A stretch of 64,000 bases of DNA from Acidimicrobiales bacterium (GTDB lineage Bacteria > Actinomycetota > Acidimicrobiia > Acidimicrobiales > SZUA-35). Below, one piece after another: positions 7,591 through 43,064 of this stretch. Location: positions 38,374 to 102,373 of the forward strand of contig JBHJNQ010000024.1 of assembly GCA_050330635.1 (NCBI GenBank), in the 5' to 3' direction. Each line of letters begins with the position of its first letter. Within the stretch, counting starts at the first letter, position 1. The notes under the pieces are model-generated. The model saw nothing but the letters and a program-made list of their open reading frames with translations, did not search any database and was not told the DNA's origin. A program made the position numbers and the translations under genes.

Positions 7591-8388
<798 letters not shown>

Positions 8389-9776: not shown

Positions 9777-10897
9777 CGTTCGTCCTGCTGTTCGTACCAG
9801 ATCAGGGCCCGTTCGAGGCCGTCGTCGATGCCGACCTCGGGCTCGTAGCCGAGGAGGGAGCGGGCCTTGTCGATGACGGGGCACCGCCGGTTGGGGTTGT
9901 CGGTGAGGTACTCGGGGTCGTCGGAGGTTTCGAGCACCACCCGACCGTCGTAGTCGAAGAGCTTGCGACCGAGTTCGGTGACCCGCTCGGCCAGCTCCCG
10001 CATCGAGATCTCCGGCCGGTCGGTGCCGACGTTGAACGACTCGCCGGGATACCGGGCGCTGTTGCCGAGGATCAGGTAGTAGCCGGTGACGGCGTCGGCC
10101 ACGTAGCAGAACGTGCGGGTGGCCGACCCGTCGCTCAGCAGCACCACGTCGCGGCCGTTGAGGACGTCACGGGCGAAGTCGGGCAGGACCCGCCCGTCGT
10201 CGATCCGCAGGCCAGGGCCGTAGTTGTTGAACGGGCGGATGATCCCGATCGGCAGGTCGTACTGGCGGGCGAAGTTGACGCACAGGGTCTCCCCGTAGCG
10301 CTTCGACTCGTCGTAGCAGGCCCGGGGGCCGGTGCAGCTGACGGAGCCCCGGTAGGTCTCGTCGGTCGGTATGCGGTCGGGGTCGGGGTCGCCGTAGATC
10401 TCGCTGGTGGAGAAGAAGGCGAATCCCTTCACCGGGTGGTCGGCGGTGGCCCGGTCCTTCAGGTGGTCGAGGAGCATGCGGAGGCCGTCGACGTTGGCGT
10501 CCATCGTCTCGATCGGGTACTGGCGGTAGTAGATGGGCGAGGCGACCGAGGCGGCATGGATGATCCAGTCGAAGCGGGGCTCCCCCTCCGGCATGGGGTC
10601 GAGCACGCTGCGGGTCACGATCCGCAGGGCCGGGTCGTCGAGTGAACCGAGCCAGTCGGGCACCCCCCGCAGGAAGTTGTCGTGGACGCTGACCCGCACC
10701 GGATCCCGGCTCGGGTTGGCGGCGTTCCACGCCAGCGGGGCCTGCACCAGGTAGTAGCCGAGGAAGCCGGCCCCGCCGGTGATGAGCAGGTCGTCGCCGC
10801 TCATGGCGGAGAAGACGGCGTCGAGACGCCTGGTCAGCGACGCCAGGTCCTCGCCGACGATGTCTCGGGGGGTGGTGGGCGCGTCGGTGGCGGTCAT
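9773..10897 (-). CDS. NAD-dependent epimerase/dehydratase (UDP-glucuronate decarboxylase-like)
   Basis: ITGGAGFLGYYL, YDESKRYGE (YxxxK). Its stop overlaps the ugd start (ATGA), so the two form an operon. Confidence 0.85.
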   Translation of the reverse strand: MTATDAPTTPRDIVGEDLASLTRRLDAVFSAMSGDDLLITGGAGFLGYYLVQAPLAWNAANPSRDPVRVSVHDNFLRGVPDWLGSLDDPALRIVTRSVLDPMPEGEPRFDWIIHAASVASPIYYRQYPIETMDANVDGLRMLLDHLKDRATADHPVKGFAFFSTSEIYGDPDPDRIPTDETYRGSVSCTGPRACYDESKRYGETLCVNFARQYDLPIGIIRPFNNYGPGLRIDDGRVLPDFARDVLNGRDVVLLSDGSATRTFCYVADAVTGYYLILGNSARYPGESFNVGTDRPEISMRELAERVTELGRKLFDYDGRVVLETSDDPEYLTDNPNRRCPVIDKARSLLGYEPEVGIDDGLERALIWYEQQDER

Positions 10898-11056
10898 CGG
10901 GTCCTTTCGGAGGGTCGTCCTCTCGATCGGCGCCGACGCCGGGCGGGTGTAGGGGCGAATGGACGACCCGTACGCCCACGGAGTGTAGGTCGATAGGCCC
11001 AACCCCGACGCTCCACCCCCGGTGGGCAACCGTGCCCGATCCTCGGGTCGGCCCGG

Positions 11057-11092
11057 ACCGCTCCCAGTTCTGGCCCGCACCGCTCCCAGTTC
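11057..11092. repeat. 14-nt direct repeat ACCGCTCCCAGTTC x2 with a 22-nt period, in a divergent promoter region
   Basis: Identical copies at 11057-11070 and 11079-11092, between the epimerase operon (-) and the acyl-CoA dehydrogenase-like gene (+). Confidence 0.8.
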
Positions 11093-11203
11093 CGGGAACA
11101 ACCCGGGCCACAACCGGCGGCGCGGGTGACCGGCGCGAGTCGCGCCGCGGTGGGACACCGCTCCATGGGGTCTGGGCCGGTGGGCGCGCCTAGGTTGGAG
11201 GCG

Positions 11204-12370
11204 ATGGGGGACGCCACCAAGCCCTGGGAACGTGATCCGATCCTCGCCGCGTCGCGCGACCTGGCTCCCGAGGTGCGGGCCGCCGCTCCCATCATCGAGC
11301 GTGACCGGTGCCTCCCCCCGGCGCTCGTCGAGTCCTTGACCGAGGCCCGGATCTTCCAGATGTTCCTACCCCGGGCCGTGGGCGGGCCGGAGGTCCATCC
11401 CCTGACCGCCTTCGCCGTGAGCGAGGAGATGGCCCGGGCCGACGGCTCCACCGGCTGGTGCATCCAGGTGTCGGCCGCCACCACCATGTTCCTCCCCTAC
11501 CTCGACCCCGTCGCCCTCGACGAGATGGCGGCCACCACCTCGGGCCCGATCCACGTGGCCGGCTCGGCCCGACCCCTCGGTGAGGCGGTACGGACCGACG
11601 ACGGCTACCGGGTCAAGGGCCACTGGAACTTCGCCAGCGGTGTCCGCCACGCCAACTGGTTCCTCGCCACCTCCTTCGTCGAGGTCGACGACGGCTCCCG
11701 AACCGCCCGCTCGATGCTGATCCCCGTGGACGAGGGCCGCATCGAGTCGAACTGGGACGTCGTCGGCATGCGGGGCACCGGCAGCGACGACTTCGTCATC
11801 GACGACGTGTTCGTGCCCCGGGGCCGGATCGGAGCCCGGCATTGGGTGGAGCGGCGACCCGAACCCCTCTACGACCCCCGGGCCATGAACGTGCTCATGT
11901 GGACCCCGACGGCCGGGGTGGCGATCGGGTTGGCCCGGGCCGCCGTCGACGCCCTCGTGGCCCTCGGCGAGCGGTCGTCGACCAGCTCGCCGACACCGCT
12001 GCGGGAGCGGACCGAGGTGCAGGACGCGGTGGCCGACGCCGAGGCCATCACCGCCGCCGCCCGGGCCTTCTGCATCGAGTCGATCGACGCCGTGTGGCGA
12101 TCCCTGTGTGGCGAGGGCGGCGACCTGCCCGAACGGGTGGCCCGGGCCCAGTTGGCCATCACCCACGCCATGCACGAAGCGGTCCGGGTGGCCGACCGCT
12201 GCTTCCACGCCGCCGGCACCAACGCCATCTCGGGAGCCAACGGCCTCGAGCGGGTGTGGCGCGATACCCACACCGCGGTCGAGCACGCCGCCGGGCGGCC
12301 CATCCACCGACGGGCCGCCGGACGGGCCCGGCTCGGCCTCGACCCCGGCGGCACCACCGCCACCTCCTGA
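11204..12370 (+). CDS. Acyl-CoA dehydrogenase family protein / flavin-dependent monooxygenase-like
   Basis: ACAD-fold signatures (SEEMARADGSTGW, GHWNFASG, GMRGTGSDDF). ATG preceded by ggttggagg. Confidence 0.85.
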   Translation: MGDATKPWERDPILAASRDLAPEVRAAAPIIERDRCLPPALVESLTEARIFQMFLPRAVGGPEVHPLTAFAVSEEMARADGSTGWCIQVSAATTMFLPYLDPVALDEMAATTSGPIHVAGSARPLGEAVRTDDGYRVKGHWNFASGVRHANWFLATSFVEVDDGSRTARSMLIPVDEGRIESNWDVVGMRGTGSDDFVIDDVFVPRGRIGARHWVERRPEPLYDPRAMNVLMWTPTAGVAIGLARAAVDALVALGERSSTSSPTPLRERTEVQDAVADAEAITAAARAFCIESIDAVWRSLCGEGGDLPERVARAQLAITHAMHEAVRVADRCFHAAGTNAISGANGLERVWRDTHTAVEHAAGRPIHRRAAGRARLGLDPGGTTATS

Positions 12371-28266: not shown

Positions 28267-28542
28267 ATGGCCGACGACCACCACACGTTCGACTCGCTGT
28301 TCGAGGTGCTGCGCCAGCGGGCGGCGGAGCGGCCCGAGGGTTCGTCGACGGTGGCCGCCCTCGACGCCGGCGTCCACTTCATCGGCAAGAAGGTGCTGGA
28401 GGAGGCGGGCGAGGTGTGGCTGGCGGCCGAGTACGGAAGCGACGAGGAATTGGCCGAGGAGATGTCCCAGCTCCTGTACTGGCTCGGTGTCGCCCTGGTC
28501 GACCGGGGCCTGTCCCCGGTCGACGTCTACCGCTACCTCTGA
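28267..28542 (+). CDS. hisE: Phosphoribosyl-ATP pyrophosphatase
   Basis: [28 protein letters not shown]...[15 protein letters not shown]...LLYW. 91 aa. Confidence 0.9.
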
Positions 28543-34065: not shown

Positions 34066-34209
34066 GACCGGTCAGGGTAGGCGAGTGGCGCCGCCGACCG
34101 GGCGTGGCCGGGATCGCATCGCCGCTGATCGACGGGGTGCCCGGAGCCTCTACCCTGGGGACGGACGGGCGGCACCTTGGTACCGCTGGACACGGAGAGT
34201 GACAGGCAG

Positions 34210-35055
34210 ATGTTGCGAGTGGCAGTACCCAACAAGGGGTCCCTGGCCGAACCGGCCTCGGCCATCCTGGGCGAGGCTGGTTACCGCCAGCGCCGGGACA
34301 AGGCCGATCTGGCCCTCGTCGACGCCGACAACGAGGTCGAGTTCTTCTTCCTCCGACCCCGGGACATCGCCGTCTACGTCGGGTCGGGCCGTCTCGACGT
34401 CGGCATCACCGGCCGCGATCTCCTCCTCGACTCGGGCTCGCCGGCCGACGAGATCCTTCCCCTCGGCTTCGCCGCCTCCACGTTCCGGTTCGCCGCCAAG
34501 CCCGGCGTCGTCACCTGCGAGCATGACCTCAACGATCTCCGGGTCGCCACCTCCTACCCGATCCTGGTGGCGAAGCACTTGTCCGATCTCGGCGTCCAGG
34601 CCGAGGTGATCCGCCTGGACGGCGCGGTCGAGGTGTCGGTGCGGCTCGGCGTGGCCGACGTCGTGGCCGACGTGGTCGAGACGGGCACCACCCTCCGCCA
34701 GGCCGGGCTCGAGGTGGTGGCCGAACCCATCCTGCACTCCGAGGCGGTCCTCATTCACCGCAGCGGGGTACGTCGTGATCCCCAGGTCGACCAGCTGGTC
34801 CGCCGACTCCAGGGCGTGCTCGTGGCCCGCCGCTACGTGATGATGGACTACGACATCCGGACCGAGCACCTGGAGGCGGCGGCGAAGATCACGCCCGGGC
34901 TGGAGTCGCCCACGGTGTCACCGCTGCAGACCGAGGGCTGGGTGGCGGTCAGGGCCATGGTGCCCGCTCGGGACGCCCAACGGATCATGGACGAGCTCTG
35001 GGAACTGGGAGCCAAGGCCATCCTCACCACCACCATCCACGCCTGCCGAATCTGA
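34210..35055 (+). CDS. hisG: ATP phosphoribosyltransferase (long form)
   Basis: MLRVAVPNKGSL..., DVGITGRDLL, ADVVETGTTLRQAGL, plus the C-terminal regulatory domain. Confidence 0.93.
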   Translation: MLRVAVPNKGSLAEPASAILGEAGYRQRRDKADLALVDADNEVEFFFLRPRDIAVYVGSGRLDVGITGRDLLLDSGSPADEILPLGFAASTFRFAAKPGVVTCEHDLNDLRVATSYPILVAKHLSDLGVQAEVIRLDGAVEVSVRLGVADVVADVVETGTTLRQAGLEVVAEPILHSEAVLIHRSGVRRDPQVDQLVRRLQGVLVARRYVMMDYDIRTEHLEAAAKITPGLESPTVSPLQTEGWVAVRAMVPARDAQRIMDELWELGAKAILTTTIHACRI

Positions 35056-35089: not shown

Positions 35090-35941
35090 TCAACCGAGGG
35101 GGCGGCCCAGCTCCTCCCAGGTGGAGCCGTAGGCGGCGGCCAGCAGCTCGAAGAGGTCGCGCCGCGACGAGCCGTTGGTGCCGGTGAGGGCGGCGAGGAC
35201 CTCGACCTCGTTGTCGTCGCTGAAGTTGGTCTCGATGGTGTAGACCATGTCGAAACGCCAGTCGCCGTCTTCCCGGGCAAAGCGAGCCACCTCGAGCCCG
35301 TCCAACACGCCGAAGGCCTCGTCGACATCGCCGGCGACGATCTCGTCGAAGCGGAGCGAGGCCACGTCGTCGCCGACGAGCCCGTCGTCGACGCCGCGCA
35401 CGAAGAGCTCCTCACCCGTCGAGACCTCGAGCAGATCGTCGCCGAGGTTGGCCCGCATGGCGACCACGGTGATGGCGTCACCCAGCGGGATCCGGTCGAG
35501 CAGGTCCTCCGGTTCGGCCTGGCGGGCCACGACGAGCAGCGAGTCGTACCACTCGATGGTTCCGGCGCTGGCCAGCGTCACCGCCTCGTTCCCGTCACGG
35601 TCGAGGAGGGCCCGACGGTAGCGCTCGAAGGCGCCCGAGACCTCGGCCTCCACGGTGCCGGCGGTGGTGGTGATGGTGGTGGTGGTGGCTCCGTCGGCGT
35701 CGGCCGCCCCGGCGTCATCACCGTCGTCGCCAGCGGGGGTGGCCGCCCCCTCGCCGCTGTCGCCCGAGCCACCGACGGCCCCGGAAGCGGTGGTGACCGT
35801 GGCCGTCGCCCCCGGCGTGGCGGTGTCGCCATCGTCGTCGCCGCACCCGGCGAGCAGCAGCGCCAGAGCCACCGCCACCGACTGCGCCACCGCCCGGGCC
35901 GTCGGTCGTCCCGCCGCCATCCGTCGCGTTCGCGACCCCAT
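35090..35941 (-). CDS. Lipoprotein of unknown function
   Basis: MGSRTRRMAAGRPTARAVAQSVAVALALLLAGCGDDD, with lipobox LAGC. Low-complexity acidic linker, then a globular domain. Confidence 0.7.
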   Translation of the reverse strand: MGSRTRRMAAGRPTARAVAQSVAVALALLLAGCGDDDGDTATPGATATVTTASGAVGGSGDSGEGAATPAGDDGDDAGAADADGATTTTITTTAGTVEAEVSGAFERYRRALLDRDGNEAVTLASAGTIEWYDSLLVVARQAEPEDLLDRIPLGDAITVVAMRANLGDDLLEVSTGEELFVRGVDDGLVGDDVASLRFDEIVAGDVDEAFGVLDGLEVARFAREDGDWRFDMVYTIETNFSDDNEVEVLAALTGTNGSSRRDLFELLAAAYGSTWEELGRPLG

Positions 35942-36105
35942 GCTCGTCGCCACCGTCCTTTCGCCGACGTCCAGCGCCAGAACCGTAACGGACCGCAGGG
36001 CCGAGCGGGTGGCGGACGAAGCCGGCGCCGATCCCCAATTCGCCCGCACGAGGCGGTCCGGGGCAGGCATGATGGAATGACCTCGATAGAGTCGAGGGTC
36101 GTCAC

Positions 36106-36179
36106 GCTGCCGTAGCTCAGTTGGCTAGAGCGCCAGATTGTGGATCTGGAGGTCATGGGTTCAAGCCCCATCGGCAGTA
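36106..36179 (+). tRNA. tRNA-His (anticodon GTG) with no encoded G-1, a G1:U72 pair and A73
   Basis: Manual cloverleaf: acceptor gctgccg/cggcagt; D arm gctc-agttggcta-gagc; anticodon arm ccaga-ttGTGga-tctgg; T arm atggg-ttcaagc-cccat. Base -1 is C and the discriminator is A. CCA is not encoded. Confidence 0.9.
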
Positions 36180-36225
36180 CACAATTCTTCGGGTGGTGAG
36201 CGCCCCGAGCTGGCAGGCACAGACC

Positions 36226-37740
36226 GTGAGCAAGAAACCGAACCGGCCGAAGGCCAGGCTCCCCCGGGGCTTCATCGATGTCGCCGGCGACGACGTCCTC
36301 CAGCGTCAGTCCATGATCGACACCATCCTGGCCGTCTACCGTCGCTACGGCTTCCAGCCCCTGGAGACACCGGCGATCGAGTTCGTCGACGCCCTCGGCA
36401 AGTTCCTGCCCGACATCGACGCACCGGGCGAGGGGGTGTTCGCCTTCCGTGACGACGACGACGAGTGGGTGGCGCTCCGCTACGACCTGACCGCTCCCCT
36501 CGCCCGCTTCGTGGCCCAGAATCGCAACGAGCTCCCCCTGCCCTACCGCCGCTACCAGGTGGGGGCCGTCTACCGGCAGGAGAAGCCGGGGCCCGGACGG
36601 TTCCGCCAGTTCTACCAGTGCGACTTCGACACCGTGGGCAGCCGCTCGATGGCCGTCGACGCCGAGGTGTGCGCCCTGCTGTCGGAGACGTTGGAGACCC
36701 TGGGGATCGGGGTCGGCGACTATGTCGTCAAGATCAACGACCGCAAGGTCCTCAACGGGGTGCTCGACGGGGCCGGCATCGCCGTCGTGGGCGACGACAC
36801 CGGCGCCGACGAGTCGGCGGCCGCCGCCTCCGTGCGGGCCCACGTGCTCCGCTCGATCGACAAGCTCGACCGGGTCGGCATCGACGGGGTGCGCCTGCTG
36901 CTCGGGCCGGGCCGCACCGACGAGAGCGGTGACGTCACGCCCGGTGTGGGCCTCGACGACGCCCAGATCGAGCGGGTCATCGGTTTCGTGTCGGCCGGGG
37001 GCGGGACCCGGGCCGAGGTGCTCGACCGGCTCCGGACGCTCGTCGGTGACGAGCCCGAGGGGCTGGAGGGAATCGACGAGCTGGCCACCATCGACGGGCT
37101 GCTCACCGCCATGGGTCTCGACGCCGACCGCGTCGAGATCGACCCCACGGTGGTGCGGGGCCTCGACTACTACACCGGACCGGTGTTCGAGGCCGTCCTG
37201 AAGATCGGCGGCGACGACCAGCCGACCTTCGGCTCGGTGGCCGGCGGCGGGCGCTACGACGACCTCGTCGAGCGCTTCACCGGCCAGGAGGTGGCGGCGT
37301 GCGGCGCCAGCATCGGTGTCGACCGGCTGCTGACCGCCCTGCGGGCACTGGGCAAGCTCGACCCCGGGGCGACCGGGGGCCCGATCGTCGTCACCGTCAT
37401 GGACCGGGAACGGCTGAACGACTACCAGGCGATGGTGGCCGAGCTACGCCGGGCCGACGTCGCAGCCGAGCTCTTCCTCGGCAACAAGAACCTTGGCCAC
37501 CAGCTCAGGTACGCCGACCGGCGCCGGTCGCCGGTGGCCGTGATCGCCGGCAGCGACGAGTTCGGTGCCGGCACCGTCGTCCTCAAGGACCTCCTCTATG
37601 GCAAGGAGGTGTCGCAGGGCATCGAGGATCGCGACGAGTGGCTCAACGCCGCCGACGTGCAGCACACGGTGCCCCGCCACGACCTGGTGGCCGCCGTCCG
37701 CCGGTTGCTCGATCGCCAGGGCTCCACCACCGCCGACTGA
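36226..37740 (+). CDS. hisS: Histidyl-tRNA synthetase, atypical (alphaproteobacterial/eukaryote-like) type
   Basis: [16 protein letters not shown]..., [54 protein letters not shown] insertion, [21 protein letters not shown] at 36226. The longer ORF call overlaps the tRNA. Confidence 0.9.
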
Positions 37741-37779: not shown

Positions 37780-38235
37780 TCAAACGGTGAACCACTCGGT
37801 GACGATGTCGCCCCCCTCGACGGTGGCCACCAGACGCACCGGGCCCGACACCGGTCGGGGGAAGCGGAACTGACCCTCGCCGTCGCACGACTGGATGTCG
37901 GCCCCGCCATCGGCCCGCACCAGCCGGATCGACATGGCGGGTGGCACGACCTGACCGAGGAGGGCCTCGGGGCCGATCTCGATCTCGACCGAGGCCCCGG
38001 ACGTAGCGAACGACAGGTGGACCGACGACCCGCCGGTGCGGACGAGGACCTCGTCGGATCCGGCGAGCGAATCGAACTGGAGATGGGCCAGCTCCTCGTC
38101 GACCGTGCGCCACACGAAGGCGGCCCGGGCCGCCGCCATCAGACGGTCGGGCACGGGATCGAAGGCGTTGACCGCGGTCCGCAGCTCGTCGAGCAGGCGG
38201 TCGTCGTCGAGGTCGTCGGAGGTCTCAGCGTTCAT
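37780..38235 (-). CDS. 151-aa soluble protein coupled to the ECF sigma (candidate cytoplasmic anti-sigma/partner)
   Basis: Its ATG shares a base with the sigma stop (TGATG). Acidic helical N-terminus (DDLDDDRLLDELRTAV), beta-rich C-terminus (GQFRFPRPVSGPVRLVATVEGG). No TM segment. Confidence 0.7.
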   Translation of the reverse strand: MNAETSDDLDDDRLLDELRTAVNAFDPVPDRLMAAARAAFVWRTVDEELAHLQFDSLAGSDEVLVRTGGSSVHLSFATSGASVEIEIGPEALLGQVVPPAMSIRLVRADGGADIQSCDGEGQFRFPRPVSGPVRLVATVEGGDIVTEWFTV

Positions 38236-38846
38236 CAATCCTGTCCCAACAGGTGCATTCCCCGGGATGACCGGAGCTTGTCGAGGCATCGGGCCCGGGT
38301 GGGTCCGATGCTGCCGATCGACATGCCGAGCAGCTCGCTCACCCGCTCGTAGGAGAGGGGTGGATCGGCGATGAGGAGGCGCAGCAGACGCTGGCAGGCC
38401 TCCGAGAGGGAGCCGAAGGCCCGCCACAGGACCTCGTCACGGGCCTCGTCCATGGCGCCCTGGTCGACCCGGGCGTCATGGTCGACGAGGTCGATCTCGA
38501 AGTCGTCGCGCAGCTTCTCCCGCCCTCCCACCCTGACGGTTCGCAGGCACTCGTTGCGGGCCGTGCTGGCCAGCCACCCACCGAGGCTGTCGGGCTGACG
38601 GATCCGGTCGAGATGCTCGGCCAGGCGGAGCCACGTGGTCTGGTAGACGTCCTCGCCGACGGCGTCGGGGAGACGGAAGCCGCGGATGACGTGCCACACC
38701 AGCCCCGCGAATCTGGCCACCAACTCGTTCCACGCTCCCTCGTCGCCGTCACGCGCCGCTCCGACGAGGGTGGCCAGGTCGCTGTTCACGACGGCCATCC
38801 TAGGGGTCGCCTCCTGCGGCCTCGGCATCGACGGTGACGCGCTCAT
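38235..38846 (-). CDS. ECF-type sigma-70 family RNA polymerase sigma factor (alternative start 38798)
   Basis: Region 2 (AWNELVARFAGLVWHVIRGF...DVYQTTWLRL) and region 4 (LSYERVSELLGMSIGSIGPTRARCLDKLR). The ATG at 38846 overlaps the S8 stop (ATGA). Confidence 0.88.
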   Translation of the reverse strand: MSASPSMPRPQEATPRMAVVNSDLATLVGAARDGDEGAWNELVARFAGLVWHVIRGFRLPDAVGEDVYQTTWLRLAEHLDRIRQPDSLGGWLASTARNECLRTVRVGGREKLRDDFEIDLVDHDARVDQGAMDEARDEVLWRAFGSLSEACQRLLRLLIADPPLSYERVSELLGMSIGSIGPTRARCLDKLRSSRGMHLLGQD

Positions 38847-40207
38847 GGGTGGGCGTTCACGACGGTGCCGAGAGCGGGATGACGGTAGAGGTGGGCCTCG
38901 TCGATGATGCGGACCACGGCCTCGGCGGGGGTGCAGGCATGGCGGACGCAGCATTGGAGCAGGGCGCCGACCACGATCGGGGCGGCGAACGACGTGCCAC
39001 TCCACCGGGCCCACCCGTCGAAGTGCCCGTCCCGCCCGTCGGTCGGCAGCGTTTTGGGGTCGCCTCCGGCGGGGACGAAGAAGTTGCTGACGATGTCCAT
39101 GCCGGGGGCACAGGCCCGAACCCACGGACCGAAGTTGGTGAAGGGCGCCGGCCCGCCGGGGCCGAGGGCGCCCACCGATACGACGCCGGGCTGGGCCGCC
39201 GGCCACGACGGCCGGTAGCTGGCGCTGTTGCCGGCCGAGGCCACCACGACCGAACCACGGGCCATCACGTGTTCCAGGACCCGGGTGATCGCCATCGGGG
39301 GCCGGTCGTCCTCGGTGTAACCGCTGAACGAGAGGTTGAACACGTCGGGCAACTGGTGGGGGGCGAGGGCCGCGATCTGCTTGGCGATGTAGGCGTCGTC
39401 GCCGACCCCGAACGTGTTGAGGACGCGGTCGACCCGGATGCGGGCCCCGGGAACCATGCGGTCGATGATCCCGGCGATGAAGGTGCCATGGCCGGCCGCG
39501 GTGTCGACCTCGTCGTTGCGGTCCTCGTCGGGTCGGTCGACGTCGACCCCCTCGGCGACCGGCTGGACCCCGCCCACGAAGGCGGGGCGGAAGTCGGAGA
39601 ACGCCAGGCCGGTGTCGTACACCCGCACCTGGAGTCTGGCGTGGGCCGGTACCGGGGCGGGCAGCGGCCCCGGATGGGCGCACCCCACGGCCAGGGTCTG
39701 GGTCGGCGCCTCGGCTGGCGTGACCGGTGCCTGGTAGGTCCCGAAGCAGTCGGCGCAGCACCCGCCGGCCGTGCCCAGACCGGCATTGGCGAACGTCACC
39801 GGGTTGGCGAACGTGACCGGGTTGGCGAACGTCACGGGGTTGGCGAACGTGACCGGGTTGGCCCGGGTGAACGAGTCGAGCTTCACCGGATCGGCGAAGA
39901 AAACGTGGTTGACCTGGGCCTCCACCCCGAGCGAGCGGAGCCGGCGGGCGACCGACACCACGTCGACCCCCGAGCCGGGGGCGAACACGACGAGGAACAG
40001 CTCCTCGGGGATGATCGAGTCGTCGACCTGATAGTCCGTTCCCTCGGGCACGACCCGCCGCAGCGCCTCCAGACCGGGTGGGGTGAGGAGTAGCTCGTTC
40101 GGTTCGTAGACGAACGGCCGACCGCCACTGCCCGTCCCGAACCCGACCCGTGAGAGCCAGTTCGGGTCCCAGGGGCGATCCATTTCGACGTTCTTGTCCA
40201 CAGCCAC
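38843..40207 (-). CDS. S8 (subtilisin-like) serine peptidase without a signal peptide; N-terminal propeptide-like domain plus (ANPVTF)x4 linker
   Basis: Catalytic motifs VYDTG (Asp), AAGHGTF (His), SGTSFAAP (Ser). No hydrophobic N-terminus. GTG start with gagaggga as RBS. Confidence 0.88.
   Translation of the reverse strand: MAVDKNVEMDRPWDPNWLSRVGFGTGSGGRPFVYEPNELLLTPPGLEALRRVVPEGTDYQVDDSIIPEELFLVVFAPGSGVDVVSVARRLRSLGVEAQVNHVFFADPVKLDSFTRANPVTFANPVTFANPVTFANPVTFANAGLGTAGGCCADCFGTYQAPVTPAEAPTQTLAVGCAHPGPLPAPVPAHARLQVRVYDTGLAFSDFRPAFVGGVQPVAEGVDVDRPDEDRNDEVDTAAGHGTFIAGIIDRMVPGARIRVDRVLNTFGVGDDAYIAKQIAALAPHQLPDVFNLSFSGYTEDDRPPMAITRVLEHVMARGSVVVASAGNSASYRPSWPAAQPGVVSVGALGPGGPAPFTNFGPWVRACAPGMDIVSNFFVPAGGDPKTLPTDGRDGHFDGWARWSGTSFAAPIVVGALLQCCVRHACTPAEAVVRIIDEAHLYRHPALGTVVNAHP
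39788..39859 (-). repeat. 18-nt in-frame tandem repeat x4 encoding ANPVTF
   Basis: ggcgaacgt[c/g]ac[c/g]gggtt x4. Units differ only at synonymous positions. Confidence 0.9.
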
Positions 40208-40400
40208 CGTCAGTCGTTCCCTCTCTCGGACGGGAGTGGTGTCCTCGCTTCACTTGAGCGCAACGCCGCCCCCCTGATACGTCGACCGCGTGACACCGAC
40301 GCTGTGACGCCCGTCCCGCCTCGGGCGACGCCACGGCCGGGCGTGACACAATCGACCAACCACCGTCGCAGCGAACATAGTCGGTTCGGGAGGTCGCGCC

Positions 40401-43064
40401 GTGAACAGGGCTCGCAGCGCCCTCGACAATGTCCAGAGCACACCGACGGTCGCCATCGGCCAGGCCCGCGCCATCCTCGCCGACTCCTCGGCCACCGACG
40501 AGGAGCGGGCGACTGCGCTGTGGGCCATGGGCCGGGCCGCCAGCGAGCTCGACGACGTCGAGCGGGCGACCGCCTCGTTGGAGGACGGGCTGGCCATCGC
40601 CCTCGCCGCCGGGCTGGCGGCCCTGGCCTCCGACATCCGCGTCAGCCTCTCGGTGCTCCGCCTCACCGGAGGCGACACCGCCGGTGCCCGGGCCCTGCTG
40701 GACGAGGCCGAGGCCGACGCCAGCGCCGGCGGCCCGCGGGGCCGTCTGGTGATGCAGCGCGGGCTCGTCGACCTCCACGTCGGTGACCTCGAGGCCGCCA
40801 TCGCCCACCTCGATGCCGCGCTCCCTCACCTGGCCGATGGGGGCGACGAGATGGCCCGGGCCCGCCTCCTCATCAACCGGGGTGTGGCCCTGATCGTCTC
40901 GGGGGAGCTCGACCGGGGCGAGGCCGACTGTCTCGGGGCCCGGGAGCTGGCCGACCGGCTGGGGCAACGCATGATCAGCGCCGGCGCGGCCCAGAACCTC
41001 GGCTTCGTGGCCGATCGCAAGGGCGACCTCCCCGCCGCCCTGGCCTGGTTCGACGAGGCCCGGGCCGGCTACGCCGCCCTCGGCTCGCCCCGCCGGGTCA
41101 TGGTGACCCTCGAAACCGATCACGGGTCGGTGCTGCTCAACGGTGGCCTCTACGCCGAGGCCGCAGCGGCGGCCGAGCGGGCGGCCGCCCTGGCCGGAGC
41201 GGCCGGCAACCGGCTGGCCGAGGGCGAGGCGGTCCTCCTCCTCGCCCGGGCCCGGCTGGCCGAGGGCGACCACGCCGGAGCCGAACGCCACGCCACCGCC
41301 GCCGCCGACCACTTCGAGCACTGCGATCGACGGTCGTGGGTGGCGGCCGCCGAGTACATCGGACTCCAGGCGGCAGCGGCGCGGATCGCCACCCCCGACG
41401 AGGTGCTGCTCGACCGGGCGGTCACCATTGCCGACGCCCTCGATGCCAGCGGCCGCCGCCGGGAGGCGCTCGAGGTGAGGACGTTCGCCGGCCGGACGGC
41501 CCTCGCCCTCGGCCGGGCCGACACGGCCCGCCACCAGCTCACCCTCGCCGCCGCCGCCCGCGACTCCGGTTCGTCGTCGGTCAGGGCCGACGCCTGGCTG
41601 GCCGCCGCCTCCCTCCACCTCGTCGACGGCGACAAGCCGGCCGCGGCCCGGGCCCTGGCCCGGGGTATGGACATCGTGGAGGAACGGCGCTCGATGCTGG
41701 GCTCCACCGAGCTGCGGGCCCACGCCTCGATCAATGCCTCCGGGCTGGCCGAGCTCGGCCTCCGGCTCGCCTTCGACGACGACTCCCCGGCCGAGGTGCT
41801 GCGATGGGCCGAACGATGGCACGCCGGCGCCATCCGCCAGCCCCCGGAACAGCCCCGACCGGGCAGTCGGCTGGCCGAGGCCCTCGTCGAGCTCCGCCAG
41901 GCCCACGCCGACGCTGCCGCCGGCCCCAGCGACCCGTTCGACGACGACGGTGTCGACGGCACGATCGCCCGGCTGGAGCGCCAGATCCGTCACCTCAGCC
42001 GCCAGGTGGCCACGAACGGCGGCGGCCCCGACCATGGCGGACCGGTCGACGCGGAGGCGCTCGGTGCGCTCCTCGGCGAGGACCTTCTCGTGGAGCTCGT
42101 CGTCGTCGGGTCGGAGCTCCGGGCGGTCACGGTGACCGCCGACCGGTTGCAGACGCACCGGCTGGCCTCCACCGACCTCGTGGCCGACCTCGTCGACAAG
42201 GCGGGATCGGCCCTGGCCCGGCTGGCCTACGGCCGGAGCCCGGACCGGGTCCGCCAGGCGACGAGCCGGGCCCTGGCCGACTCGGCCTCCCGGCTCGACG
42301 AGCTGCTCCTGGCACCGCTCGACCTCCCCCCGGACGTTCGGGTGGTGGTCGTTCCCACCGGCCCTCTCCAGCGCCTCCCGTTCGCCCTCCTCCCCAGGTT
42401 GGCCGACCGGCCGGTGACGGTGACCCCGAGCGCGTCGGTGTGGGCCGCCGGTGCCGTCCCTGCGGACGGCCGACACGGGGCCCGGGCCCGGACCGTACTG
42501 GCGTGCGGGACCGCCCTGCCGGGCGGCGAGCGGGAGGTCGACGACCTGCGCTCCCTCTACCCCGATCCGACGGTGCTGGTCGGTTCGGCCGCCACCGTTC
42601 CCGCCGTGGCCGGGGCCATGGAGTGGGCCGACATCGTCCACCTGGCCGCCCACGGACGGTTCCGCCACGACAACCCCATGTTCTCCTCCCTCGCCCTGCA
42701 CGACGGACCGTTGACCGTGTACGACATCGAGTCGCTCCGGTCGGCCCCCCGAACCGTGATCCTCTCGGCCTGCGACGCCGCCCGGGCGTCGGTCCATCGG
42801 GGCGACGAGCTGCTGGGCACGGCGGCGTCGCTGCTCCAGGTCGGCGTTCGCACCGTGGTGGCCCCGATGACCGTCGTGCCGGACGCCAGGGCCGTGCCCC
42901 GCCTCATGGTCGAGCTCCACCGCCGGCTGGTGGCGGGCGACCGCCCGGACGAGGCGCTGGTGCGGGCCCGCCAGGTGCTGGTTGCCGAGTTCGACGCCCT
43001 CGACATGGCCGTGGCCGCCGCCTTCGTCGCCATCGGCACACACCTTCCCCGAGTGTCATCGTGA
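40401..43064 (+). CDS. TPR-like repeat / CHAT domain (caspase-like) protease, 887 aa
   Basis: About 600 aa of Ala/Leu-rich helical repeats, then a CHAT core with His in IVHLAAHGRF (codon 42651-42653) and Cys in VILSACDA (42771-42773). GTG start after gggagg. Confidence 0.88.
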   Translation: MNRARSALDNVQSTPTVAIGQARAILADSSATDEERATALWAMGRAASELDDVERATASLEDGLAIALAAGLAALASDIRVSLSVLRLTGGDTAGARALLDEAEADASAGGPRGRLVMQRGLVDLHVGDLEAAIAHLDAALPHLADGGDEMARARLLINRGVALIVSGELDRGEADCLGARELADRLGQRMISAGAAQNLGFVADRKGDLPAALAWFDEARAGYAALGSPRRVMVTLETDHGSVLLNGGLYAEAAAAAERAAALAGAAGNRLAEGEAVLLLARARLAEGDHAGAERHATAAADHFEHCDRRSWVAAAEYIGLQAAAARIATPDEVLLDRAVTIADALDASGRRREALEVRTFAGRTALALGRADTARHQLTLAAAARDSGSSSVRADAWLAAASLHLVDGDKPAAARALARGMDIVEERRSMLGSTELRAHASINASGLAELGLRLAFDDDSPAEVLRWAERWHAGAIRQPPEQPRPGSRLAEALVELRQAHADAAAGPSDPFDDDGVDGTIARLERQIRHLSRQVATNGGGPDHGGPVDAEALGALLGEDLLVELVVVGSELRAVTVTADRLQTHRLASTDLVADLVDKAGSALARLAYGRSPDRVRQATSRALADSASRLDELLLAPLDLPPDVRVVVVPTGPLQRLPFALLPRLADRPVTVTPSASVWAAGAVPADGRHGARARTVLACGTALPGGEREVDDLRSLYPDPTVLVGSAATVPAVAGAMEWADIVHLAAHGRFRHDNPMFSSLALHDGPLTVYDIESLRSAPRTVILSACDAARASVHRGDELLGTAASLLQVGVRTVVAPMTVVPDARAVPRLMVELHRRLVAGDRPDEALVRARQVLVAEFDALDMAVAAAFVAIGTHLPRVSS

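Follow-up and report, generated by a model that had tools for sequence, protein, structure and literature searches.

The stretch of DNA analysed here, 64,000 nucleotides of contig JBHJNQ010000024.1 from an Acidimicrobiales bacterium (hereafter the window; 71.6% G+C), carries a gene for tRNA-His(GTG) directly upstream of hisS, the gene for histidyl-tRNA synthetase (HisRS). Canonical bacterial histidine identity involves an encoded G-1:C73 pair, atypical RNase P cleavage, and a glutamine in motif 2 of the synthetase. The alphaproteobacterial RRCH clade is given in the literature, including a 2023 review of tRNA identity, as the sole bacterial exception to G-1. Both genes of the window pair carry the marks of that exception in an actinobacterial setting. 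Our analysis covered these 64 kb of the host genome and, in relatives, up to 10 kb on either side of hisS.

ARAGORN finds one tRNA in the whole window, tRNA-His(GTG) at 36106-36180 on the forward strand, and the Rfam tRNA model RF00005 matches it over its full length (36106-36179, 70.7 bits, E 2e-15). The cloverleaf reads GCTGCCG/TA/GCTC/AGTTGGCTA/GAGC/G/CCAGA/TTGTGGA/TCTGG/AGGTC/ATGGG/TTCAAGC/CCCAT/CGGCAGT/A. U8 lies at 36113, which fixes G36106 as position 1. Base -1 is C (36105), pair 1:72 is a G:U wobble (G36106:T36178), pair 2:71 is C:G (C36107:G36177), and the discriminator is A73 (36179) and not C73. A73 is followed by CAC, so CCA is not encoded. Position 37 is G, and the D-loop, AGTTGGCTA, has 9 nt with an extra U20a. 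No register pairs a G at -1 with a C73. An earlier reading of the window from its letters (the sequence-only reading) had folded this gene by hand to C-1, G1:U72, and A73; ARAGORN, Rfam, and the cloverleaf bear this out, and automated folding gives neither G-1 nor C73. Since there is no G-1:C73 pair to shift cleavage, RNase P would be expected to cut the precursor at the normal +1 site, and the mature tRNA would start at G1.

The G-1-less alphaproteobacterial tRNA-His was defined by A73, G1-U72, a conserved C-G71, and an invariably 9-nt D-loop with U20a (Yuan et al., PMC3064791), and the window gene has every gene-level feature of that group. Two alphaproteobacterial control loci (L030, L031) show the same features as the window, including G1:U72 and C:G71. 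The tRNA-His genes of Pseudorhodobacter and Methylobacterium have t at -1 followed by GCCGCC...GGTGGT-A-CCA, with the D-loop AGTTGGTTA. The canonical tRNA-His of Nonomuraea (L032) has g at -1 followed by GTGGGTG...CACTCAC-C-CCA, with G1:C72, C73, and an 8-nt D-loop. A BLAST match to a supposed Sinorhizobium tRNA-His (H41) proved to be tRNA-Arg and was dropped.

The hisS reading frame is adjacent to the tRNA gene, as the sequence-only reading had it, at a distance of 46 nt from A73 rather than the 47 nt given there. It begins with GTG, in a start GTG-AGC-AAG that is conserved among relatives, and encodes 504 residues. The product scores 376.9 bits against the NCBIfam hisS equivalog TIGR00442, above the cut-off of 286.75, and contains the Pfam tRNA-synt_His core and HGTP_anticodon domains. 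An identity as HisZ was rejected: the TIGR00443 score of 163.7 is below its cut-off of 271.65, the HGTP_anticodon domain is present, and the neighbouring HisG is of the long form.

Several sequence marks define the type of this enzyme. Its motif-2 loop, EKPGPGRF, has glycine at the position of the canonical glutamine and is identical in Loktanella, Paracoccus, and Sinorhizobium; the canonical loop, ERPQ[A/E/K]GRY, occurs in Tsukamurella, Embleya, and three other bacteria. The Gln-to-Gly change covaries with loss of G-1:C73 (Amrine et al., PMC3937112). The insertion-domain signature DKLDRxGxDGVxxLLGxGRxDxSGD is common to the window HisRS and the alphaproteobacterial enzymes, as is the N-terminal signature KARLPRGF, which is identical in Methylobacterium. 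The sequence-only reading had named these two signatures together with a replacement for LRPEGTA, and all three are present and shared with Alphaproteobacteria. An insert of about 20 residues in the anticodon-binding domain can be aligned across the whole family, and the near outgroup P0185, which has a canonical loop, lacks it; the canonical sequences compared do not align over this region. An insert of this kind has been proposed as the likely anticodon reader (Yuan et al., PMC3064791).

The window HisRS is 55-60% identical to enzymes of Rhodobacterales, 47-54% to those of Rhizobiales, and 30-32% to those of Tsukamurella and Embleya. Its closest relatives (60-78% identity) come from metagenome-assembled genomes (MAGs) labelled Acidimicrobiales, Acidimicrobiia, or Actinomycetota and from Iamia, with Rhodobacterales following from about 60%. 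Its best matches in the PDB are the Nostoc enzyme 3net and the human cytoplasmic enzyme (E 1e-55 to 1e-59), and matches to the E. coli, Thermus, and Staphylococcus enzymes are far weaker (E 1e-27 to 1e-32). These sequence marks support the assignment of the window HisRS to the G-1-independent Caulobacter type. For the Caulobacter enzyme, the anticodon and U72 are the major determinants, and addition of G-1 brings no improvement (PMC3064791). The window HisRS would correspondingly read the GUG anticodon, U72, and A73 in place of G-1.

We placed the enzyme in a neighbour-joining tree with 100 bootstraps and 81 sequences, comprising the named loci and representatives at 50% identity. The node that unites the G-1-independent, or Gly-loop, HisRS family (the deltaG-1 family) has 92% bootstrap support, and the window enzyme lies inside it rather than with the ordinary actinobacterial enzymes. 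The Acidimicrobiales sequences are monophyletic (73%), with subclades supported at 96% and 100%. They sit within an 82% clade that also holds the Planctomycetota isolate Adhaeretor mobilis, Ca. Lernaella, two Myxococcota MAGs, a Planctomycetota MAG, an Acidobacteria MAG, and one MAG labelled Alphaproteobacteria. This clade is weakly sister to Rhodobacterales (56%). Rhizobiales, Hyphomonadaceae, Parvibaculales, and Pelagibacteraceae have other positions in the family, which also includes sequences named Phycisphaerales, Ca. Uabimicrobium, and Saprospiraceae.

HisG, encoded upstream of the pair, reaches 56-65% identity to the proteins of Nonomuraea, Microbacterium, Tsukamurella, and Nocardia, against 33% or less to others in the same database as was used for HisRS; among named matches it is nearest to Nonomuraea (64.7%), followed by Microbacterium (59.8%) and Tsukamurella (58.4%). 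Because HisRS is nearer to Rhodobacterales (55-59%, versus 30-32% for Actinobacteria) while the neighbouring HisG is actinobacterial, hisS appears to have been horizontally transferred. Most simply, Acidimicrobiales would have gained a deltaG-1 HisRS once by this route.

The deltaG-1 HisRS is much more widely scattered than stated in the literature searched. The sequence-only reading had limited this type to Alphaproteobacteria; it extends to Planctomycetota, Myxococcota, Acidobacteriota, Saprospiraceae, and Ca. Lernaella. Enzymes with both the Gly loop and the insert were seen outside Alphaproteobacteria and Acidimicrobiales in L012, L019, L020, L021, L023, P0121, P0124, P0127, P0131, and P0171. 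The holders are Adhaeretor mobilis (a complete genome), Phycisphaerales, Ca. Uabimicrobium, other Planctomycetota, Polyangia/Myxococcales MAGs, an Acidobacteria MAG, Saprospiraceae, and Ca. Lernaella stagnicola. A G-1-less tRNA-His was seen in one of them, L012, and the others are known by their HisRS.

Within Acidimicrobiales, the arrangement found in the window is standard. A scan of one genome per GTDB species gave 23 loci with this HisRS type; a 5.4-Mb contig and the complete genome of Iamia majanohamensis (CP116942.1) were added to these. Of 20 Acidimicrobiales loci, the window included, 16 have a tRNA-His gene 20-200 nt ahead of hisS and in the same orientation. What the sequence-only reading took for an isolated case in an actinobacterial context is thus the usual arrangement of a deep Acidimicrobiales clade. 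All 16 linked tRNA genes have G1:U72, C2:G71, and A73. The -1 base follows no pattern (c,a,c,a,t,g,t,t,t,t,t,c,c,t,c,t), and chance is excluded because the acceptor and discriminator set recurs in every locus while -1 varies. The D-loop has 9 nt in 15 of the 16 loci and 8 nt in L009, and base 20a is not strictly U in the clade, being A or C in L010, L011, and L018. One of the 16 loci, L005 (closed chromosome OZ244139.1), has a G at -1 (9863) facing A73, probably by chance. Only here could an unpaired G-1 conceivably be encoded, and the TAGAGT motif of this locus (see below) lies further upstream than in the others.

The linked loci include a closed 6.3-Mb chromosome (L005) and the isolate I. 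majanohamensis, in which tRNA-His lies 51 nt upstream of hisS. Four loci from Iamia sp. MAGs (L013-L016) have no adjacent tRNA-His. These had suggested that Iamia lacks the linkage, a notion rejected on the evidence of the isolate; the linkage was therefore lost inside this genus-level group. The four unlinked loci have a common conserved leader before the hisS GTG, …ggcttgccgc…caccaggatggccggcggcc…gagaggaagaccaGTG. Both major Acidimicrobiales HisRS subclades contain the linked state, which therefore probably dates back to the base of the clade.

A promoter-like motif precedes the linked genes. In the window and in L001-L004 and L006-L009, GTAGAGTC ends 13-14 nt before position 1 of tRNA-His; in L003, L004, and L006-L009 it is preceded by TTGAGG with a 17-nt spacing. 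L011 and L018 have TTGCAA-17-TACACT upstream of tRNA-His instead. The -35 element of the putative window promoter is weak. We found no terminator-like site on the forward strand between tRNA-His and hisS, where the predicted fold is no better than those of shuffled sequences. An Rfam scan of 35800-36500 gave the tRNA and no T-box or other leader RNA; the spacer is just 46 nt long. Given the short distance from tRNA-His to hisS and the conserved promoter-like motif ahead of both, the two genes are most likely co-transcribed, with their linkage maintained by selection. The suggestion in the sequence-only reading that the pair is maintained as a unit is well supported by this motif and by the adjacency in 16 of 20 loci.

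Two further features of the relatives concern the same region. Where the spacer between tRNA-His and hisS is long, the additional sequence is made up of near-perfect, GC-rich hairpins in arrays, of which the window has none. Examples are L003 at 9799-9900 (four in a row, -71.9 kcal/mol, z -9.0), L004 at 9862-9960 (z -3.2), and L008 at 9912-10000 (z -2.5). These could be small palindromic repeat insertions, terminators or attenuators, or processing sites. In addition, the hisS match contains one in-frame stop in L003 (10001-11518) and two in L010 (10001-11957, stretched over 1957 nt). Both loci keep tRNA-His upstream despite the stops, which could be assembly frameshifts or signs of pseudogenisation.

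The surrounding chromosome is that of an actinobacterium. The 40 window proteins scanned are products of ordinary chromosomal genes, including hypF/hypE, gnd, major facilitator superfamily transporters, hisE, and the long-form hisG, and the window encodes three F420-type luciferase-like monooxygenases. Its flanks are syntenic with those of Acidimicrobiales-labelled MAGs at 55-81% amino acid identity, which is comparable to the identity of hisS. The G+C content at third codon positions (GC3) of hisS is 0.92, the same as in neighbouring genes, and there is no step in G+C or composition. The uniform composition and shared flanks together identify an Acidimicrobiales chromosome in which hisS is neither a recent arrival nor an assembly chimera, and a recent transfer of hisS was rejected on the same compositional grounds. 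Gene content (the F420-type monooxygenases), HisG similarity, and Acidimicrobiales synteny uphold the Actinomycetota-like context described in the sequence-only reading; neither HisG nor the flanks are alphaproteobacterial. We found no second HisRS among the 40 window proteins. The features of the locus are listed in Table 1.

Table 1. Features of the tRNA-His-hisS locus and its surroundings, in window positions.
Feature	Position	Strand	Basis and remarks
hisE, phosphoribosyl-ATP pyrophosphohydrolase	28267..28542	+	Pfam PRA-PH
hisG, long-form ATP phosphoribosyltransferase	34177..35055	+	Pfam HisG + HisG_C; actinobacterial by similarity
326-aa protein gene	35090..36070	-	Ala/Gly/Asp/Thr-rich; no Pfam match
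-10-like hexamer TAGAGT, putative promoter of tRNA-His-hisS	36087..36092	+	13 nt upstream of position 1
tRNA-His(GTG), deltaG-1 type	36106..36179	+	ARAGORN, Rfam, cloverleaf; also 15 further Acidimicrobiales loci and controls L030, L031
Spacer between tRNA-His and hisS, 46 nt from A73	36180..36225	+	fold -12.4 kcal/mol, z +0.82 versus shuffles
hisS, G-1-independent (Caulobacter/RRCH) HisRS	36226..37740	+	TIGR00442, Pfam, motif-2 loop, insert, identity, tree
Gene cluster downstream of hisS	37780..43064		conserved in L006-L009
215-aa protein gene (downstream cluster)		-	no Pfam match
ECF-type sigma factor (downstream cluster)	~38238..38840	-	Sigma70_r2
Subtilase (downstream cluster)	38843..40207	-	
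18-bp tandem repeat in subtilase gene	39786..39862		4.3 copies; encodes repeated ANPVTF
887-aa TPR + CHAT-domain protein (downstream cluster)	40401..43064	+	

The tRNA-His-hisS pair lies in a histidine-themed neighbourhood, with hisE and hisG upstream. A hisG orthologue is found directly upstream of the pair in L001, L002, L005, and L122, and a hisE orthologue ends a few hundred nucleotides before tRNA-His in L003, L004, L010, L011, and L018. The gene for the 326-residue protein stands between hisG and tRNA-His in the window, divergent from the tRNA-His promoter region, and has no match at that position in L001, L002, L005, or L122. In Ruegeria, hisZ follows directly after hisS. The proximity of hisS to hisG could be coincidental, reflect a regulatory coupling, or be a remnant of the transferred fragment.

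We next consider the family outside Acidimicrobiales. A profile built from the non-Acidimicrobiales members gave 80 loci in a metagenome scan, mostly Rhodobacterales- or Rhizobiales-like, and of the 60 that were scanned for tRNA-His, none has it in the flanks of hisS. Linkage as a general property of the family is rejected on this count. The distance from tRNA-His to hisS is 0.48 Mb in Pseudorhodobacter and 1.8 Mb in Methylobacterium. The only near-linkage found is in the Polyangia-labelled MAG L012, where a G-1-less tRNA-His (8126-8199; a at -1, then GCAGCCG...CGGCTGT-A, with A73 and a 9-nt D-loop) lies 1.8 kb upstream of a deltaG-1-type hisS (10001-11479), with an opposite-strand gene for a 367-residue protein between them. 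No relative was found on IMG/VR viral contigs. Phage matches to tRNA-His proved to be ordinary tRNAs of enterobacterial phages, and no integrase, transposase, or plasmid genes adjoin the pair in the window; a mobile carrier was rejected on these counts. The further suggestion of the sequence-only reading, that the pair moves as a unit, is no more than plausible in view of the 60 unlinked family loci, the viral contigs, and a tRNA body at least as near to a canonical actinobacterial tRNA-His as to the alphaproteobacterial ones.

The named comparators are chromosomes filed in the plasmid collection PLSDB. Records there with hisS, hisG, or tRNA-His are often megabase replicons (NZ_CP104131.1, NZ_CP069303.1, NZ_LT559118.1, NZ_CP015293.1, and others), with sizes of 3.5 Mb for Sinorhizobium, 4.6 Mb for Shinella, and 11.85 Mb for Nonomuraea. 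A 21.9-kb "plasmid" record of Cereibacter sphaeroides carries hisS. We do not regard these records as evidence for plasmid-borne hisS.

The window pair is probably an anciently acquired HisRS with its cognate tRNA-His, kept as a small operon and serving as the housekeeping, G-1-independent histidine-charging system of its host; we hold this with good confidence. In this scheme, hisS would have entered the ancestor of the Acidimicrobiales clade long ago by horizontal transfer from the deltaG-1 family, would since have become fully ameliorated, and would, with its tRNA, have replaced the native histidine pair. The C. crescentus HisRS charges E. coli tRNA-His 250-fold worse (PMC3064791), and because the two systems are orthogonal in this way, transfer of either partner alone would have been useless at first. 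We lean slightly towards arrival of tRNA-His together with hisS, rather than remodelling of a native tRNA-His. The acceptor stem of the window tRNA, GCUGCCG, is close to that of Polyangia, GCAGCCG, with a compensatory change at 3:70, and G4-C5-C6 is common to all the deltaG-1 tRNAs-His compared.

A number of observations weigh against all or part of this scheme. Neither the 60 metagenomic loci nor the viral contigs offer a linked pair that could have been a donor for co-transfer. Over the tRNA body (positions 8-65), the window gene is 85% identical to the canonical tRNA-His of Nonomuraea, 80% to that of Polyangia, and 76% to the alphaproteobacterial deltaG-1 tRNAs, a comparison of little power with 58 comparable nucleotides and no canonical tRNA-His from Acidimicrobiia in the set. 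The tree is a neighbour-joining tree, and its key nodes are moderate (73% and 82%, and 56% for the Rhodobacterales link). Most relatives are MAGs, with taxon labels taken as given. A generic sigma-70 scan finds no promoter upstream of the window tRNA-His; TAGAGT emerged on aligning relatives. The biochemistry is that of the C. crescentus system, and the Acidimicrobiales pair is known from its sequence. Finally, the genome may encode, beyond the 64 kb covered, another hisS or tRNA-His of the canonical kind or a Thg1-like enzyme.

In a rival account, hisS alone was transferred and the native actinobacterial tRNA-His then mutated in place (loss of G-1, C72U, C73A, gain of U20a), later coming to lie beside hisS through rearrangement or duplication. 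We regard this as a substantial possibility, though on balance a doubtful one. It accords with the tRNA body being closer to canonical Nonomuraea than to the alphaproteobacterial deltaG-1 tRNAs, and with most potential donors being unlinked. Ardell and Andersson (2006) reportedly gave such an in-situ interpretation for the alphaproteobacterial tRNA-His. In-situ divergence is also the conclusion reached for that tRNA in the literature (PMC3064791). Remodelling would, however, have to pass through an intermediate in which a lone deltaG-1 HisRS meets a canonical tRNA-His, with the 250-fold loss given above, and which would be non-functional unless the native HisRS persisted. The adjacency in both basal Acidimicrobiales subclades, the acceptor stem near that of Polyangia with the G4-C5-C6 of all deltaG-1 tRNAs, and the Polyangia locus with its tRNA-His 1.8 kb from hisS all argue against it, and the body comparison that favours it has the little power noted. 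The alternative that a canonical pair resides elsewhere and the linked pair is a second, orthogonal system (a back-up, or one that is stress-specific or inhibitor-resistant) appears unlikely. Extra copies of aminoacyl-tRNA synthetases do give antibiotic self-resistance in actinomycetes, and whole genomes beyond the scanned regions could hold a canonical pair. Both modes of histidine recognition coexist in Acanthamoeba (PMC4338351). An accessory role fits poorly with a conserved chromosomal position beside hisE and hisG, with conservation over a clade whose HisRS has diverged to 56-62% identity, and with a nearly invariant tRNA-His and a GC3 like that of the neighbours. No biosynthetic-cluster or mobile-element genes surround the window pair, and the alphaproteobacterial precedent is a single pair (PMC3064791).

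It is very unlikely that a Thg1-like enzyme adds G-1 after transcription for a HisRS that is still G-1-dependent, as in eukaryotes. Eukaryotic genes likewise have A73 and lack an encoded G-1, and Thg1-like proteins are present in some bacteria (PMC3061083). The motif-2 glutamine that reads G-1:C73 is gone from the window enzyme, however, its loop is identical to those of the Caulobacter-type enzymes whose G-1 independence is experimental, and U72 and U20a, determinants particular to the G-1-independent system, are present. No Thg1 domain was found among the 40 window proteins, a weak test that extends to 64 kb only. The source is probably a metagenome contig, which raises the question of an alphaproteobacterial fragment mis-assembled or mis-binned into an actinobacterial contig. 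This can hardly be the explanation: the same junctions (hisG/hisE, tRNA-His, hisS, and shared downstream genes) recur in at least 15 independent assemblies, including a 6.3-Mb closed chromosome, contigs of 3.6 and 5.4 Mb, and the complete genome of a cultured isolate. G+C and GC3 are moreover uniform, and the HisRS is just about 60% identical to any alphaproteobacterial enzyme.

A comparison with known systems places the ancient, operon-like pair favoured here among its relatives. As in the alphaproteobacterial RRCH system, the tRNA-His lacks G-1 and has G1:U72, C2:G71, A73, G37, and a 9-nt D-loop with U20a, and the HisRS has the EKPGPGRF loop, the insertion-domain signature, the anticodon-domain insert, 47-60% identity, and a place in the same family of the tree. 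Unlike that system, the host belongs to Actinomycetota and tRNA-His immediately precedes hisS, the two sharing a promoter-like motif; and unlike the hisS-hisZ arrangement of Ruegeria, the Acidimicrobiales neighbours are a long-form hisG and hisE. With the canonical system of E. coli, Thermus, and actinomycetes, the window pair has in common that the HisRS is of class IIa (TIGR00442), that the anticodon is GUG, and that both have one and the same role in the cell, but it lacks G-1 and C73, has G1:U72 for G1:C72, and its HisRS identity is about 30%. The systems of Acanthamoeba castellanii and Trypanosoma brucei also have a tRNA-His with A73 and no G-1, read by a HisRS that relies on the anticodon (PMC4338351). 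In contrast to the window pair, they arose independently in eukaryotes, and important differences between their enzymes and the C. crescentus type are reported (PMC4338351). Trypanosomatid HisRS is not close to the window enzyme (best PDB E about 1e-31, versus 1e-59 for Nostoc 3net). The archaeal-type TyrRS and TrpRS of the Candidate Phyla Radiation (PMC5370408) are likewise foreign-type synthetases with tRNAs of matching foreign identity. They differ from the present case in amino acid and lineages, and here the donor family is bacterial and the cassette is a tight one of two genes.

The mechanism itself is already known; the novelty lies in the phylum of the host, in how widely the enzyme family extends, and in the operon-like cassette of tRNA and synthetase. 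We found no report of a G-1-less pair outside Alphaproteobacteria in the literature searched, and no publication joining tRNAHis with Acidimicrobi*, although literature coverage is no proof of absence. Transfer of foreign identity rules has been argued to be rare (PMC3937112). A bolder reading is that a self-sufficient tRNA-His-hisS cassette crossed phyla as one piece and displaced a G-1-dependent system in the ancestor of a large Acidimicrobiales clade, and that the G-1-less system, rather than being a single synapomorphy of Alphaproteobacteria, is spreading horizontally in at least six phyla (counted as Alphaproteobacteria, Actinomycetota, Myxococcota, Planctomycetota, Acidobacteriota, and Bacteroidota/Saprospiraceae). 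We offer it tentatively, as somewhat short of an even prospect.

G-1 on tRNA-His is among the most conserved of tRNA identity marks. A deep actinobacterial clade with a G-1-less rule implies that such a rule can pass from one phylum to another and supplant that of the recipient, and the small-operon arrangement makes the crossing more striking. The use of the trait as a clean synapomorphy of Alphaproteobacteria, as in arguments about where SAR11 belongs, is correspondingly weakened. As a compact and naturally linked orthogonal HisRS/tRNA pair, the cassette could serve genetic-code engineering, and Iamia majanohamensis provides a cultured organism in which the G-1-less rule is testable.

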